A DNA stretch of 63,967 bases, filler included, from Reclinomonas americana ATCC 50394 (taxonomy: Eukaryota): assembly GCA_048213135.1 (NCBI GenBank). It is 6 parts of 5 records of this genome, joined end to end, with 100 filler letters (N's around TTAATTAATTAA, not from the genome) between each part and the next. Parts side by side here need not be neighbours in the genome. Positions count along the whole stretch, not along the records: positions 1 to 20,254 come from PS015435.1; positions 20,355 to 39,804 come from PS015436.1; positions 39,905 to 48,336 come from PS015437.1; positions 48,437 to 50,543 come from PS015438.1; positions 50,644 to 61,956 come from PS015438.1; positions 62,057 to 63,967 come from PS015447.1. One strand, written 5' to 3'. Position numbers and translations under genes: made by a program. Shown piece after piece: positions 772-63,898 of the stretch. Below the pieces are notes generated by a model. It did not search any database. It saw only the letters and a list, made by a program, of their open reading frames with translations, and was not told where the DNA came from. Each line of letters begins with the position of its first letter. The stretch's first letter is position 1.

Positions 772-3482
772 GATGCAGCGTCTGTTCGCGGTCCGCTGAC
801 CGATCTCACCCAGTTGTTTGACAAGTTGCGCGACGACACCGATGGCAGTGTGAAAAAGGTGAGAGCGAAGGGCGAGTGCTATCGCACGTCCGGTTGAATC
901 CCTGACATTGCACCTCGTGTACAGGCCTGCGCTGTGCTGGAGAAGTGCTGCAAGGACATGAAGAGTGGCGTGCCACCGGCCGAGGACCTTCCCCGACTGC
1001 AAGAGGAGGTGGGGGCGGTGCAGACAGACATGGTCGCGCTGAGGAAGCGGTCGGCGCGTCTCGAAAACATGGTGTGCGCCGTGCTCAACCAAAAGTCTCA
1101 CTGTTGCGTGTCGTCTCAGTCACGCGAGAGCACCTCTTTTTTTTTTGTATTGGCGGTGCTGACTCGCTGTTGCAGTGGAACGCCTTTCCGAGGCGGTGAT
1201 AAAGGCGGTCGCGGAGGCGCGAGATCCGTCGAATGCACCGGCCACGCGACCGCTCTCAGAGCCGCAGGCTGAGATGCGCAGCAAGATTGTGGAACGACTG
1301 CGGGTACGGCACAATCCATCGTCTCGTCTGGCTTGTGGTTGCTGTTGTTTGACATTGTTGTGATTGCTGTTTCGGCAGGCGGTGAAGCGCCAGGTTGACA
1401 ATGTGCAAAGTTGGCTGTCGGCCACAACACAGGAAGCACAACGAGCGTCGAGTGCCGCTTCCGGCGACTCGATTCCGCAGGTGGTTGTGCTTGTCGAGAC
1501 GGCCAAATTGCAGTACGAGCTCGCCTCGCGCAGCGCCGAGGTTCTTGACAAGCTGCACAGTCAGTCTCGCAGAGTTGCGGTGATAGACGGCTTTGCGAGG
1601 GGTTTATCTCGTGTCCACGGTCTCTGATCTCCTCGTCGATGCAGGTGGCCGAAGGTGTGCTGAGATCGGCGCGTGGATCGATGGCCCCGAGCATCCGTGA
1701 CCGGCAAGTGCCGGTGGATGTGAAACCGCGTGAGGCGCCGGCGTCGTCTGCGAAACGGTCGGCCGCAGGTGCCCATCGAACTACGGCGGACAGCGTTCGA
1801 CGCACGGCATTGCGGACGCTGCTCGAGAACAGGCGTGCCGAGCAGCTTCGTGTGGCGGCGCAACCAAAGCCGCTACCGGCGGGTGCCACTGCGTTGCTGG
1901 CGGCACCTGCTGCGGCCGCCGCCTCGGCCACGCCGCCACTTGCCCTGGTACCGAATCCGCTGCGTAATGCACCGGCGGCTGCCGTGGTGGCGGCTCCCGC
2001 GGCAACAGCCACGACGACAACGACGACCACTACAGCAATCACGAAACCAGCAACGACCACGGTGACGACAGTGAAGCCCCTGGCAACTCCACTGGCCAAG
2101 CCGCTGGTGGCGCCGGCCTCTGCCGCCGCCGCACCAGCACCATCGGCCACTGTCACCGTCGTCAAGCCGGCAACGTCACCATCCCCGTCGCCCTTGCCGA
2201 AACCAGCAGTAGCGGTAACGCCTGCGTCGGCGTCACCGACTCCCACACCGCAGCCCGTGTCCACTGGAGCAGCGGCAGCCGCACCAGTAAGTACGGCACC
2301 GGCCGCCAAACCGCCTCTGTCGAGCTTTGCATTCGGCAAGCCGAACGTGCTAACTGGCGGCGTTGCCAAGCCGCTGTCCGCAACAGCAAGTGGCACACCA
2401 CCTACTCTCAAGGCGTTCCCGGCGGCCACGCCCGTGACACGGTCACCACCGACCACAGCGCCGACTACTCCAGCCATTGTTAGTGTGATTGACGAGAGCA
2501 AGGCGCCATTCAGTCCGCAAGATGCGACTGCGGGCCGTCGCGTGAATGGCGACGGTGAGCAGAACGCGGCACCGGCATCCACTCCCTCGCTGCCGCCGCT
2601 GCCAGCCGATATTGACGACGACGCAGAGTTCGACGCCGTGCTCGCCGCAGGTGACGCCGACAGCATGTCCGCAGTACCTGGTGCGTAGTTTGTTGTCTTT
2701 GTCTCGACTTACGCGTTCTCTGACTCGTTTGTCGGATAATAGCTCAACCGATCAAACCTCCGTCGACGACGACCACCAAACCCGCTGGCGCGCTCAGTTT
2801 CGGCGGTCTCTCACTTGGTGGCGCTGCAGGCGGCGGAAGTGCGTCGCGGGGAGCACTCAGCTTTGGAGGCAGTGGTGGTGCTGGTGGCAGTCAGTTCCCC
2901 TCGGTAGCTCGCGGTGCTTCAGCCACTATTGCCAGTCCGCTGTTCCCCAGTGGCGCCGGGCGGGGGGCTGGTTCTCTTGCCTCGCCACCGGCTGCTGGCG
3001 GCGCTTCCCCTGCCACCGGCAAGGCGTTTGCTTTCGGCCCGTCAAACCCGCTGTTGGGCGGAGCAGGCCGATCAGCTGCGCCGCCAGCTCAATCGGGCGG
3101 CTTGTTGCGACCACCGACGTTCAGCTCCTCGGCAGTGCCCGGTGTGCAACCAGGAGGTGGAGGAGGTGGTGGTGGTGCTGCTCCCGCAGCGCAGCCACGA
3201 TTCGGCAGCAGTACGTTTGGCGCTGCGGGTGGTGGTGGTTTTGGCTCGAGCACGTTTGGCACCAGCACGTTTGGTGGCAGCTCATTCGGCAGCGGCGCTC
3301 CGGGCGCGTCGGCGAGACCAGTGGGCTCTTTTGTTGCGTTCCGCCACTTTGTGGAGTCACAACAACCATGTCGCCCATCATTGTTGTTGTTGTTGTTTCA
3401 CTAGGGAGGAGGACGGGGGACTGCCAATGCGTTCTCCACACTGGCCAGTGCTGCAGCACAGCAGCGACAAGCCGAGCAATAA
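772..3482 (+). CDS. FG-repeat nucleoporin-like protein (coiled coil + Pro/Ala/Thr linker + SFG/xFG repeats; Nup214/Nup159-like C-terminal half), 5' partial, multi-exon
   Basis: Spliced coiled-coil exons 772-1573; low-complexity exon 1646-2680 with FAFG; exon from 2742 with many SFGG/TFG repeats; likely last exon GGGRGTANAFSTLASAAAQQRQAEQ* ending 3482. Confidence 0.6.
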
Positions 3483-3553
3483 TGACACAACTGAGAGAAA
3501 TATACAGTGTGTGCAAGGAATTGGTTTATTTTCTTCTGTGTGTCTCCCTCCAA

Positions 3554-4361
3554 TCACATGTCGTCTGACACGGGTTCCGCTCGCTCCACGTCACCATCCT
3601 CCAGATCATCGGCAGCGACCGCATCGCCCGCCATTCCCTTTTCTACCACCACCACCACACCGCTCATGCGCGTGCCACTGGACGGCTTCCTATCGGCGTG
3701 GAAGCAGCGGCGGCACACGGCGACGTACTTGTCGGCGCCACCAATGACCTCCACCGCACAGTCGCTGACAATGCGCTTGGAGAAGTGCGCGTCCTCGCCA
3801 CACGACATGCACACGGCAGTGAGCTTGACCACTGCCTCGGCCATTGGCAGCAGCTCCAGCACAGCACCGAATGGCTTTTGCTGGAAGGTGCCATCGAGCG
3901 CGGCCACAATCACCGTCTTGCCGAGGTTGGCGGCCTCGTCGCAGAATGACACCAGATCGGGGAAGAACTGACCCTCATCGATGCCAATGCAGTCGTGCGA
4001 GGCCACCAAGTGCGCTGCCTCGCTCAGTCGCTCACACGGGAACGCCGAGTACAGTTGTCTGTTGAGAACAGAGAGCGAGTGTGAGGTTTTCGCGCGCGCG
4101 CATCGTATTCGCATCATGACGTGTCTGCGCAACTGGTCGTGCGTGGCCACGCAGTCGTCTGAGTACCGCACATCGCGCTTGTACTTGAGCACAAGACACT
4201 TGCGACGCGCCAGTGTGTGTCGCTTCACACGTCGCAAGAGCTCAGTCGACTTGCCAGCGAACATCGGGCCCAAGATCAACTGTGTGTGAGCGTGTGAGTG
4301 AGTGCGTGACAAAGAGAGAGTGTGAGAAGTGGCGCGAAACTTCAACACTTCCACGATCCAT
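3554..4361 (-). CDS. TK1: Thymidine kinase (TK1 type), 3 exons
   Basis: MDRGSVE|LILGPMFAGKSTEL (P-loop), IGIDEGQFF, ALDGTF, Zn-binding C-x2-C, IGGADKYVAVCRRCF; intron donors at 4340 (GTTTCG) and 4133 (GTTGCG). Confidence 0.95.
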
Positions 4362-61815: not shown

Positions 61816-62163
61816 CTGCGTGCACACATGAATGAGAGAAAGATTTGAGTGTGTGAGAGAGAGAGCAACACACATTCTTTGTCTCCTTTTTCTCCGCGTC
61901 TTCCGTCCTTGTTCTCTCCTCTCTCTTTTGCTCTCTCTCTCTCTCTCACTGGGGGGNNNNNNNNNNNNNNNNNNNNNNNNNNNNNNNNNNNNNNNNNNNN
62001 TTAATTAATTAANNNNNNNNNNNNNNNNNNNNNNNNNNNNNNNNNNNNNNNNNNNNCCATCGTCCTCGCGAACTGTACTCTTCTCGGCTTCATTACGTAC
62101 TGAAAGGGGAGAGAATGGGAAAAAACACACACACACAGACATATGCACATGCACAAGAGCGCG

Positions 62164-63898
62164 CTATGGAGCTGCGCGCAAAAGTAATAATTCGTTCTCG
62201 GAGAGGGCTTCGTACTCTACACGCCGGGTTGATAGGTTTCGGCGAGTTCTGGGTAGCAGCACAGCATTTCCTCCCAAATGCCCACTGCAGAGACACGCGT
62301 GAANNNNNNNNNNNNNNNNNNNNNNNNNNNNNNNNNNNNNNNNNNNNNNNNNNNNNNNNNNNNNNNNNNNNNNNNNNNNNNNNNNNNNNNNNNNNNNNNN
62401 NNNNNNNNNNNNNNNNNNNNNNNNNNNNNNNNNNNNNNNNNNNNNNNNNNNNNNNNNNNNNNNCAACAGAGAGGCACACAGAGTGCAGCATACAAAAGAG
62501 TCCACGCAACGCTTGACATCCTCATTGGTGTGTATCTGATCGTCAAAGGAAAAGTCGATCTCCACCGGCGCGATTTCCTGGTGTGCAGGTGAGCGACAAC
62601 AACGGCACACTCCGTGACATTCACAAAAAAAAACACATACCGGATCGGCAAGTGGTGACGAGTGGAAGAACGGGTGTACCAGTGCATCCTCCACCGTTAT
62701 CCGATCGGCGGGATTGAAGGTGAGCATGCGCGACAACAGATCCAATGCTGCAATAACATTTAGCAGGAAGGTTCGACAGCAGTCAGACGCGGAAATGCGT
62801 AAACTCACCCTCCTCCGAGGCATCGGGCAGCACCTCACGCCAGCTGTGCGGTGCGAAATTCTCCTGCCGCAACAACCAGTTCCGTGCTTCCAGCGACCCA
62901 ATGTCGGCAATGTCTTCGTCCTTGGGCTTGCCCAGCATTTGCATAATCAGCGTCAGTTGGTGTACGTCTGCGACACACATTCGTCGTCAGCAACCATTCA
63001 AAGCAAGCAGGTTAGGAGTCGGAGAGAGAGAGAGCGCGATAGACGCACGTGAGGTGCCGGGGAAGAGCGGATTCCTCAACAACAACTCGGCAAAAATGCA
63101 CCCCGTCGCCCACATGTCGACGGGGAAGCTGTAGTGCTTCCACTGCAGCAACAGCTCGGGCGCACGGTACCAGCGTGTCTGCACACGTGGAATGTTTACA
63201 GTCACCGTCAGTGTCGCCGACTCATTGCAGTGGGCGGTGATCTCTGTGTGTGACGAACCACAACATACTGCGTCTTCTCCAGCGAAAACAACATGCCCTG
63301 GTGCTCCGTCTCCGAGTGCCGTGCCAAACCAAAATCGGCAATCTTCAGAGAGCAGTCGCTGCTCACCAGCAGATTACCGGGCTTCCTGCACGATGAAGAG
63401 AGTGGTTAGTGAAGCCTGCATCGTGTGTGTGTGTGTGTGTGTGTGTATGCACGAGGTGCCGCCGCCACGCAACAAATCACGATGTACAATGTTGCACGTC
63501 TTCAGGTACTTTAGGCCAATCAGCAACTGATGCAGGAAGAACTGCACGTGCGCCTCGGTGAGCGTCTGCTCTGACCGGATCACCCATTGCAGATCCGTGT
63601 CCATCTTGTCAAACACCTGCATCATCGTGACGGCGGTCGTCAACACAAGCACAACAACCACCACCACGACTGTGGACAACTGAACGCACCAAGTAGACCT
63701 CGTTGAACTCGGCATACGATGGCACCTTCATCAGCTCTCGCAGCGCGATAACGTTGGGATGGCGAATGTTGCGCAGCAGCTTGACCTCACGCAGCAGCCG
63801 CTTGCCCTCCAGCACCTTCTCAAAGGGTCTCTGTACGCGCTTGATGGCCACCTCCTCTCCCGTGATATTATCAACTGCCGCCACCACCACACCATACC
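62164..63898 (-). CDS. MAP kinase (CMGC), 5' partial
   Basis: [72 protein letters not shown]. Confidence 0.95.

Follow-up and report, generated by a model that had tools for sequence, protein, structure and literature searches.

Evidence for a second class of 5' splice sites, GTTGCG, in 64 kb of the Reclinomonas americana genome

Introduction

In this study, we analysed 63,967 nucleotides (nt) from Reclinomonas americana ATCC 50394 (assembly GCA_048213135.1), six parts of five records joined end to end; this whole stretch is called the window. The DNA is nuclear and eukaryotic, contains about 57% G+C and is broken by many assembly gaps; its genes are dense and cut by short introns. Apart from ordinary donors of the (A/C)AG/GTGCGT type (here and below a slash within a motif marks the exon-intron junction), these genes appear to use a second, tightly defined class of major-spliceosome donor, W/GTTGCG(T/C), with GTTGTG, GTTGAG and GTTTCG as rare variants; this class is well supported at the level of sequence. 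We consider it fairly probable that the introns concerned are GT-AG introns of the major spliceosome with a second donor consensus, that they make up about one quarter of the introns in the window, and that U1 pairs with their donors in a displaced register.

Results

Existence and frequency of the GTTGCG donor class

An earlier inspection of the window (the original prediction) had listed 32 introns, spliced by hand, that begin with GTT-N-N-G. All 32 coordinates carry this motif on one strand (26 GTTGCG, 3 GTTTCG, 2 GTTGTG, 1 GTTGAG), and the tally given for the last exon base (-1), A13/T12/C6/G1, was exact on recount. Introns were then predicted with a home-made gene finder (Viterbi / dynamic programming), whose codon usage was first trained on 1373 codons within Pfam matches. 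In its donor-blind mode any GT...AG intron of 40-300 nt was allowed and no donor model was applied; one run used a flat intron penalty, and a second added terms for the acceptor base, a YTNAY branch motif and intron length. In a further, self-trained run the donor table was learned from the output of the finder itself, and this run is biased toward GTTGCG.

GTTGCG was the most frequent donor hexamer throughout. With the flat penalty it opened 12 of 86 introns, followed by GTGCGT with 5, and with the additional terms it opened 25 of 151 (GTGCGT 15, GTGTGT 11). The self-trained, motif-favouring run placed it at 35 of 158 introns, next to GTGCGT (24), GTGTGT (13), all GTGAGN together (19) and GTAAGT (0). 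From the donor-blind output we defined 114 'confident' introns (gene score >25, length 45-130 nt, YAG acceptor, branch motif present). GTTGCG starts 23 of them, whereas independent choice of the bases at +3 to +6 would yield 1.44 (Poisson P 4e-20), which rules out a chance enrichment of the word. The original prediction, which would have failed had the hexamer been no commoner than single-position frequencies allow, thus passes this check. This is an approximately 15-fold enrichment at donor-blind donors, 20% compared with the 1.32% that GTTGCG contributes to the 8117 GTNNNN words of the window. On both strands together 107 copies of the hexamer were counted (62.7 expected under a second-order Markov model).

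Two distinct donor consensuses had been proposed, and in the confident introns T at +3 associates with G at +6 (odds ratio 15.7, P 2e-9), and G at +5 excludes G at +6 (odds ratio 0.07, P 1e-7). GTTNNG donors without +5G form a major class, 27 of 114 (about 24%); 55 introns have +5G and 32 fit neither consensus. On the sense strand of the modelled genes, again in the motif-favouring self-trained run, a predicted intron begins at 33 of 53 copies of GTTGCG, compared with 1 of 16 for GTTGCC, 0 of 30 for GTTGCT and 0 of 26 for GTTGCA. The donor-blind run recovered 11 and the self-trained run 18 of the 32 listed donors. Both classes occur mixed in the same genes, as had been claimed; in the self-trained gene models, GTTGCG-type donors are found together with GTGCG, GTGAG and GTGTG donors. 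In TTLL12, for instance, six GTTGCG donors occur along with GTGCGC, GTGCGG, GTGCGT and GTACGC. The expectation of more candidates in the USP, FtsX and WD40 genes was borne out by five new ones in the USP40-like gene, five in the WD40 gene and one before the FtsX-like exon, among about 20 GTT..G donors that the gene finder placed beyond the original list. Together, the listed and new candidates gave an enlarged set of 52 GTTNNG introns selected by the motif.

Junctions placed by homology

To place junctions, the two flanks of each intron were scanned separately and it was determined whether the profile or structure coordinates meet; the Pfam scans used stop-to-stop frames and exon references. 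Homology fixes nine of the 32 listed junctions, and a further four are nearly exact or have one-sided support. Of the rest, 18340 is doubtful, the intron at 62510 is lost in a gap, and 17 were placed by reading-frame continuity only (Table 1). At all nine homology-fixed junctions, sliding the junction gives ends other than GT-AG. Four of them are placed by exact Pfam continuity and the others by a TTLL12 profile, solved monooxygenase chains, metagenome homologues or conserved motifs.

Several motifs named in the original prediction lie at these junctions. The donor at 63473 falls within the kinase motif HRDL/KP, with the intron inside the catalytic loop and Pkinase continuing exactly across it. 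The motif KKA/MELS is kept at the MADS-box donor at 12920, where a micro-exon ends with KKA and the next exon opens with MELS. This micro-exon (12921-12942, minus strand) is only 22 nt long, encodes ...GLVKKA in the middle of the MADS box, and is preceded by an acceptor ...AACAG and followed by the GTTGCG donor. At the catalytic Cys box of the USP40-like gene (28335), the first residue of the next exon is position 7 of the UCH profile, and an alternative GT 3 nt downstream would insert one residue within the box. A downstream GT within GTTGCGT was also considered as the true donor and rejected, as it would add 5 nt and break exact profile continuity.

In TTLL12, junction 30310 was placed with our own profile of 17 full-length homologues, and Pfam SET_TTL agrees within 2 positions. 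For junction 32128, the alignment of two intron-less homologues on metagenome contigs (L001, L002) reaches the donor, and the motif at their C-terminus resumes in the next exon. The metagenome scan with the TTL exon had returned three contigs of about 50% identity, two with an uninterrupted full-length frame; these serve as protein homologues and say nothing on splicing in relatives. A word-index homologue search with a 92-residue TTLL12 exon returned one short protein. In MutS, the intron 52892-52964 ends with AAG (acceptor 52962-52964) and has exact Pfam continuity; therefore, non-YAG acceptors are used at least occasionally.

Among the near-exact or one-sided cases, the flanks of 33180 reach residue 275 and resume at 278 of 6lkd_A, a gap of 2 residues, with two chains compared. 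At 4133 the upstream exon matches the TK profile up to position 52, and the downstream exon takes it up again at 74, following 18 residues; at 4340 the downstream exon opens at TK position 5, the upstream exon being too short for a scan. The exon downstream of 16241 has weak matches to NAD_binding_6 (137-155) and to the C-terminal end of a DUOX1 chain; no match to the PDB was obtained for the upstream exon. A canonical GTGTGT intron of 60 nt in the monooxygenase gene (34182-34241, minus strand) is in frame and stop-free, and its flanks map to adjacent positions of the solved chain. Thus, in-frame introns without a stop occur in this genome and can pass for coding sequence.

Anatomy of the two donor classes

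In the 27 donor-blind confident GTTNNG introns, the -1 base is A12 C3 G1 T11, followed in the intron by G at +4 (26), C at +5 (24) and T18 C8 at +7. The 55 introns with +5G have G at -1 in 37 cases, G40 and A2 at +3, C22 T19 A10 at +4, and T31 C16 at +6. The predicted anti-correlation with -1G is thus clear: 1/27 as against 37/55 (P 1e-8). In the enlarged set the -1 base is A24 C5 G2 T21, a pattern seen in all three intron phases, C stands at +5 in 48 of 52 and +7 is T36 C14; the hexamers are GTTGCG (44), GTTTCG (4), GTTGTG (2) and GTTGAG (2). All 52 acceptors end in AG (50 CAG, 1 TAG, 1 AAG), and the base after the acceptor has no pattern (G16, A16, T14, C6). No conservation was found in the GTTNNG class past +7. 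When the logos are aligned, G-T-T-G-C-G-T stands opposite G-G-T-G-C-G-T.

The ordinary donors are peculiar as well: A is found at +3 in 2 of 55 and C or T at +4 in 41 of 55, and GTAAGT, present in five copies in the window, was never a predicted donor. The shortage of +3A and the preference for C or T at +4 are unusual for pairing with standard U1.

In all other properties the classes coincide. Median length is 66 nt for GTTNNG introns (10th to 90th percentile 58-81 nt) and 70 nt for +5G introns (Mann-Whitney P 0.49), and CAG acceptors are found in 26 of 27 and 50 of 55, respectively. CTCAC/CTGAC-like branch motifs lie 17 nt (GTTNNG) and 19 nt (+5G) from the 3' end; the branch motif was also a filter for the confident set, so that its presence is partly by construction and its distance and type are not. 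The G+C content of the introns does not differ between the classes. Since length, branch motif and CAG acceptor match those of ordinary introns in shared genes, GTTGCG introns appear to be a second donor class of the major spliceosome.

Candidate introns

The coordinates of all candidates are given in Table 1. For 1574, the gene finder kept the acceptor but placed the donor at a GT located 33 nt upstream. The exon downstream of 13719 matches Ribosomal_L33 (14-47). In the USP40-like gene, homologues (5 proteins) are too divergent for residue-level placing of 26196, 25882 and 22840-22314, and a metagenome scan with a 500-residue USP exon returned no relative.

Table 1. GTTNNG introns and intron candidates in the window, grouped by how their junctions were placed ('original', from the first list of 32; 'new', added by the gene finder).
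Gene or context	Position (strand)	Donor	Length (nt)	Phase	Source	Support and remarks
Protein kinase	63386..63473 (-)	GTTGCG	88	2	original	Pkinase 123, split codon 124, 125
MutS	51862..51930 (+)	GTTGCG	69	0	original	MutS_I 44 to 45
MutS	52892..52964 (+)	GTTGCG	73	1	original	MutS_III 41, split 42, 43; AAG acceptor
TTLL12	31462..31525 (+)	GTTGCG	64	1	original	Pfam TTL 104, split 105, 106
TTLL12	30310..30373 (+)	GTTGCG	64	1	original	own profile 151, split 152, 153; TAG acceptor
Kynurenine-monooxygenase-like	34345..34419 (-)	GTTGCG	75	0	original	41 to 42 of 5x68_A, 37 to 38 of 6lkd_A
TTLL12 C-terminus	32128..32198 (+)	GTTGCG	71	2	original	metagenome homologues
MADS-box	12850..12920 (-)	GTTGCG	71	0	original	next exon from SRF-TF position 24
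USP40-like, catalytic Cys box	28266..28335 (-)	GTTGTG	70	2	original	sequence and UCH
Kynurenine-monooxygenase-like	33111..33180 (-)	GTTGCG	70	0	original	donor-blind finder, chain match
Thymidine kinase	4059..4133 (-)	GTTGCG	75	2	original	donor-blind finder, Pfam TK
Thymidine kinase	4280..4340 (-)	GTTTCG	61	0	original	TK, one-sided
NADPH-oxidase-like	16178..16241 (-)	GTTGCG	64		original	candidate, one-sided
NADPH-oxidase-like	18251..18340 (-)	GTTGCG	90		original	doubtful; Ferric_reduct 4-10 aligns inside, read-through frame
TTLL12 insert	29660..29723 (+)	GTTGTG			original	ambiguous
	62505..62510 (-), donor	GTTGCG			original	motif present; intron body in N gap 62304-62463
	1574..1644 (+)	GTTGCG	71	0	original	frame continuity; A at -1
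	4994..5045 (+)	GTTGCG	~52		original	frame continuity; acceptor uncertain
	6559..6620 (+)	GTTGCG			original	frame continuity; self-trained run uses donor with other acceptor, 90 nt
	7793..7860 (+)	GTTTCG			original	frame continuity only, ambiguous
	9247..9303 (+)	GTTTCG	57		original	donor-blind finder
Before ribosomal protein L33 exon	13588..13719 (-)	GTTGCG	132		original	self-trained run
NADPH-oxidase-like	16428..16486 (-)	GTTGCG	59		original	donor-blind finder
TTLL12	28726..28798 (+)	GTTGCG	73		original	donor-blind finder
TTLL12 insert	29833..29891 (+)	GTTGCG	59		original	self-trained run, frame continuity
	32226..32296 (+)	GTTGCG	71		original	self-trained run only; coding scores weak
Kynurenine-monooxygenase-like	33897..33949 (-)	GTTGAG	53		original	donor-blind finder
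	36351..36411 (-)	GTTGCG	61		original	donor-blind finder
	36475..36537 (-)	GTTGCG	63		original	frame continuity
	37726..37789 (-)	GTTGCG	64		original	self-trained run; G at -1
	44214..44269 (+)	GTTGCG			original	frame continuity only; acceptor uncertain
	44570..44636 (+)	GTTGCG	67		original	frame continuity only
	1103..1175 (+)	GTTGCG	73	1	new	self-trained run
	9749..9812 (+)	GTTGCG	64		new	donor-blind finder
	14218..14281 (-)	GTTGCG	64		new	donor-blind finder
USP40-like	22250..22314 (-)	GTTGCG	65		new	donor-blind finder
USP40-like	22628..22701 (-)	GTTGCG	74		new	donor-blind finder; downstream exon UBL_USP40 34-86
USP40-like	22782..22840 (-)	GTTGCG	59		new	donor-blind finder
USP40-like	25824..25882 (-)	GTTGCG	59		new	donor-blind finder
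USP40-like	26136..26196 (-)	GTTGCG	61		new	self-trained run; BLASTP matches of two homologues stop at 26197
TTLL12	30657..30724 (+)	GTTGCG	68		new	donor-blind finder
Before FtsX-like exon	35274..35339 (-)	GTTGCG	66		new	donor-blind finder; downstream exon FtsX 22-66
	35523..35584 (-)	GTTGCG	62		new	donor-blind finder
	36666..36738 (-)	GTTGCG	73		new	donor-blind finder; G at -1
	38255..38302 (-)	GTTGCG	48		new	donor-blind finder
	40087..40181 (-)	GTTGAG	95		new	donor-blind finder
	41252..41314 (+)	GTTGCG	63		new	donor-blind finder; low-scoring gene model
	55954..56022 (-)	GTTTCG	69		new	donor-blind finder
WDR3-like WD40	59078..59146 (-)	GTTGCG	69		new	donor-blind finder
WD40	60130..60197 (-)	GTTGCG	68		new	self-trained run
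WD40	60454..60524 (-)	GTTGCG	71		new	donor-blind finder
WD40	60775..60845 (-)	GTTGCG	71		new	donor-blind finder
WD40	61003..61079 (-)	GTTGCG	77		new	donor-blind finder

Genes and other features of the window

Long open frames and exon-sized pieces were assigned by Pfam to a thymidine kinase, a Bin3/MePCE methyltransferase, a MADS-box factor, a mitochondrial-type ribosomal protein L33, a SUEL-lectin protein, an NADPH-oxidase-like ferric reductase, a USP40-like ubiquitin hydrolase, TTLL12, a kynurenine-monooxygenase-like flavoprotein, an FtsX-like-domain gene, TGS1, a bacterial-type MutS, a WDR3-like WD40 protein and a protein kinase. The best named protein relatives are from amoebozoans and one mollusc, at 40-45% identity.

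The MutS gene (51736-55659, plus strand) has its best matches in alphaproteobacterial MutS and a Balamuthia protein (35-38% identity) and contains about a dozen spliceosomal introns. Since it is split by such introns, it probably resides in the nucleus and encodes a mitochondrial, MSH1-like MutS. TTLL12 harbors about 1 kb of extra open frame between profile positions 115 and 120 (29184-30218, plus strand), encoding leucine-rich-looking peptides; this insert has no Pfam match and no counterpart among the 17 homologues. An exon (35137-35271, minus strand) of a large multi-exon gene at about 34774-39499 matches the C-terminal domain of bacterial FtsX-like permeases (E 6e-8), and the remainder of this gene has no Pfam match. 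Five pairs of N runs of exactly 44 bases, each pair with 12 real bases between, were found at 20255-20354, 39805-39904, 48337-48436, 50544-50643 and 61957-62056; this looks like an assembly or masking artefact and not like biology.

Discussion

Proposed displaced pairing with U1

The heptamer GTTGCGT differs from G/GTGCGT only at the second base, which is T instead of G. With this change the sole GT sits one base further 5', so that the cut would fall there. In the mechanism that we propose, the 5' end of the U1 small nuclear RNA (snRNA) would first pair with the TGCGT core, in a register one nucleotide off the cleavage site. Such displaced pairing may be seen either as a shift, in which the first G of the intron replaces the last G of the exon, or as a bulge, in which +3T is looped out. 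A later U6/U5 step would then set cleavage at the sole GU. It is plausible that an ordinary U1 would read the class in the shifted register, and the near-absence of -1G favours the shifted register over the +3U bulge, because in the shift +1G takes C9.

The displacement by one base that had been claimed for these donors agrees with the logos of both classes. The accompanying idea that ordinary U1 is the reader fared less well, given a predicted duplex near zero and tied pair counts for the two displaced registers. The standard U1 5' end is AUACUUACCUG. The mean number of pairs to it is 6.4 in the shifted, 6.5 in the +3-bulged and 4.2 in the canonical register. Several points weigh against our interpretation. 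The shifted and bulged registers are equal in pair count, and nearest-neighbour energies of GUUGCGU with AUACUUACCUG are near zero in any register, at -1.6, +0.5 and -2.8 kcal/mol (A, U and G at -1), compared with -7.8 for the canonical donor GUGCGU and -12.2 kcal/mol for GUGAGU. The C at +5 (48/52) cannot pair with position 5, a pseudouridine, of standard U1, and it is more conserved than the equivalent canonical +4 (C 22/55). At -1, T (21/52) is about as common as A (24/52) and pairs with nothing in the shifted register; no register explains the equal use of T and A together with the avoidance of G and C. The scope is 64 kb of one genome, and all junctions were deduced from DNA and homology, those of 17 of the 32 listed introns and most new candidates from frame continuity or the home-made finder. 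The logo of the enlarged set is circular within the motif, because its 52 donors were chosen by that motif. Some donors are evidently misplaced by the gene finder, since 32 of the 114 confident introns fit neither consensus; these are probably mostly its errors. The listed intron 18340, 90 nt long, in frame and without a stop, was not predicted by the gene finder and may be coding, since Ferric_reduct positions 4-10 align in its end. Donor 29660 has a GT of the same phase 3 nt downstream (29663), which the gene finder preferred; the TTLL12 profile comparison gave no homology around it.

Alternative explanations

The poor pairing might instead reflect an unusual reader, either a U1 with an altered 5' end (for example G/C for pseudouridines 5-6) or a second U1-like snRNA complementary to W-GUUGCGU, with perfect or near-perfect pairing. 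For standard U1 and the consensus of the class hardly any duplex is predicted; a hypothetical G5/C6 5' end would bind this consensus at -6.2 to -9.5 kcal/mol. The same 5' end would rank GUGCGU > GUGUGU > GUGAGU > GUAAGU, which roughly matches the usage of 24, 13, 19 (all GTGAGN) and 0 among the 158 self-trained introns; the rarity of +3A and the C or T at +4 in canonical donors, like the conserved +5C of the displaced class, also point in this direction. However, the G5/C6 sequence is our own construct, the U1 5' end is near-invariant among eukaryotes, and GTGCG donors also occur in other GC-rich organisms, presumably alongside a standard U1. An Rfam scan of the whole window at the gathering score gave no matches, and thus no U1 gene or other snRNA in the window. 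We regard an altered or second U1 as possible, with the chances rather against it. Standard U1 in a bulged register, with +1G and +2U paired to C8 and A7, +3U looped out and +4 to +7 paired as +3 to +6, seems unlikely to us. It matches the shifted register in pair count, and for human sites a register bulged at +2/+3 has been described (PMC4856993). However, -1 would still face C9 in this arrangement and a -1G preference as in canonical donors (37/55) would be expected, where 1/27 and 2/52 were observed.

The displaced class might also be the relic of an introner, a mobile element that spread new introns in a burst and had a GTTGCG 5' end and an insertion site ending in A or T. The uniform donor and narrow length range (58-81 nt) would suit this, and the target site could have left its trace in the preference for W at -1. 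The same length range is found in canonical introns, though, the base after the acceptor is patternless and conservation ends at +7. Pairs sharing any 8-mer amount to 10.9% within the class, 8.3% among canonical introns and 8.8% between classes. With no excess of shared sequence, an introner family was rejected, and we hold this origin to be very improbable. We give even less credence to an artefact, in which hand-splicing and the gene finder misplaced the junctions and GTTGCG is merely frequent near true donors. The 32 confident introns without a recognisable consensus, the probably coding intron 18340 and the equally framed GT 3 nt from 29660 are in line with such errors. Against it stand the nine junctions for which independent profiles or solved structures give residue-level positions, where sliding destroys the GT-AG ends, and the enrichment of GTTGCG in a search blind to donors.

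Relation to known splice-site classes

In humans, displaced-register donors are rare and exceptional, and each had to be demonstrated separately with mutant U1s. Roca and Krainer reportedly described shifted-register 5' splice sites in human genes in 2009, and Roca et al. are said to have described 5' splice sites of the bulge +2/+3 register in 2012. U12-type introns have the donor consensus RTATCCTT and a TCCTTAAC-type branch near the 3' end. Of 201,541 human 5' splice sites, 1.5% belong to one or another of the validated noncanonical registers (Tan et al., 2016; PMC4856993). The same paper gives 68 human sites predicted for the +2/+3 bulge register, 54 after curation, and a share of 0.36% for human U12-type introns.

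Like the human shifted-register sites, the GTTGCG introns are GT-AG introns of the major spliceosome, do not rely on -1G and are still cut at GU. By pair count to a standard U1 their donors would also match better one base displaced, with +1G in place of -1G; the bulged register counts as many pairs, and the predicted energies are near zero in every register. Unlike the isolated and rare human sites, the GTTGCG introns comprise about 24% of confident introns with one near-invariant heptamer, known here from DNA. Moreover, 6-7 bases of the AAGUAU type are paired to U1 at the human sites, and the predicted pairing of GUUGCGU to standard U1 is poor. With the bulge +2/+3 sites they share a GUU-type donor, with one U extra relative to the canonical alignment, and a pair count equal to that of the shifted register; in that register, however, -1G should stay favoured, and it occurs in 2 of 52. 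As with U12-type introns, a second and stricter donor class occurs in the same genes as ordinary introns. However, the donor is not RTATCCTT, branch motif and distance, acceptor and length are canonical, and the class is far more common than the human U12-type; a U12-type identity was therefore rejected.

A full-text literature search for GTTGCG or GUUGCG and longer or degenerate forms found no use as a splice signal among the matches listed, with incomplete coverage of subscription papers. Work on shifted or bulged registers was confined to humans or model organisms among the matches listed. The passages of PMC3033335 consulted mention no such donor class.

Significance

About one quarter of the introns of this genome will be missed or wrongly placed by gene predictors trained on only one donor matrix; our own donor-blind run missed 21 of the 32 listed donors. 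An altered or additional U1 would mean that donor recognition itself has been retuned in this lineage. If a second U1-like snRNA were the reader, the major spliceosome would have two parallel donor codes, one of them cutting one base upstream of the position that the shared TGCGT core would normally dictate. Displaced pairing of U1, the explanation that we favour, would, if the class extends genome-wide, mean that R. americana uses one displaced donor with a near-invariant heptamer for approximately every fourth intron and has made routine what is a rarity in humans. It would then offer a natural system in which the position of U1 binding can be separated from the position of the cut. Potentially, it could also reveal the reason for the avoidance of G and C at -1, and show if the supposedly invariant 5' end of U1 can co-evolve with the donors.

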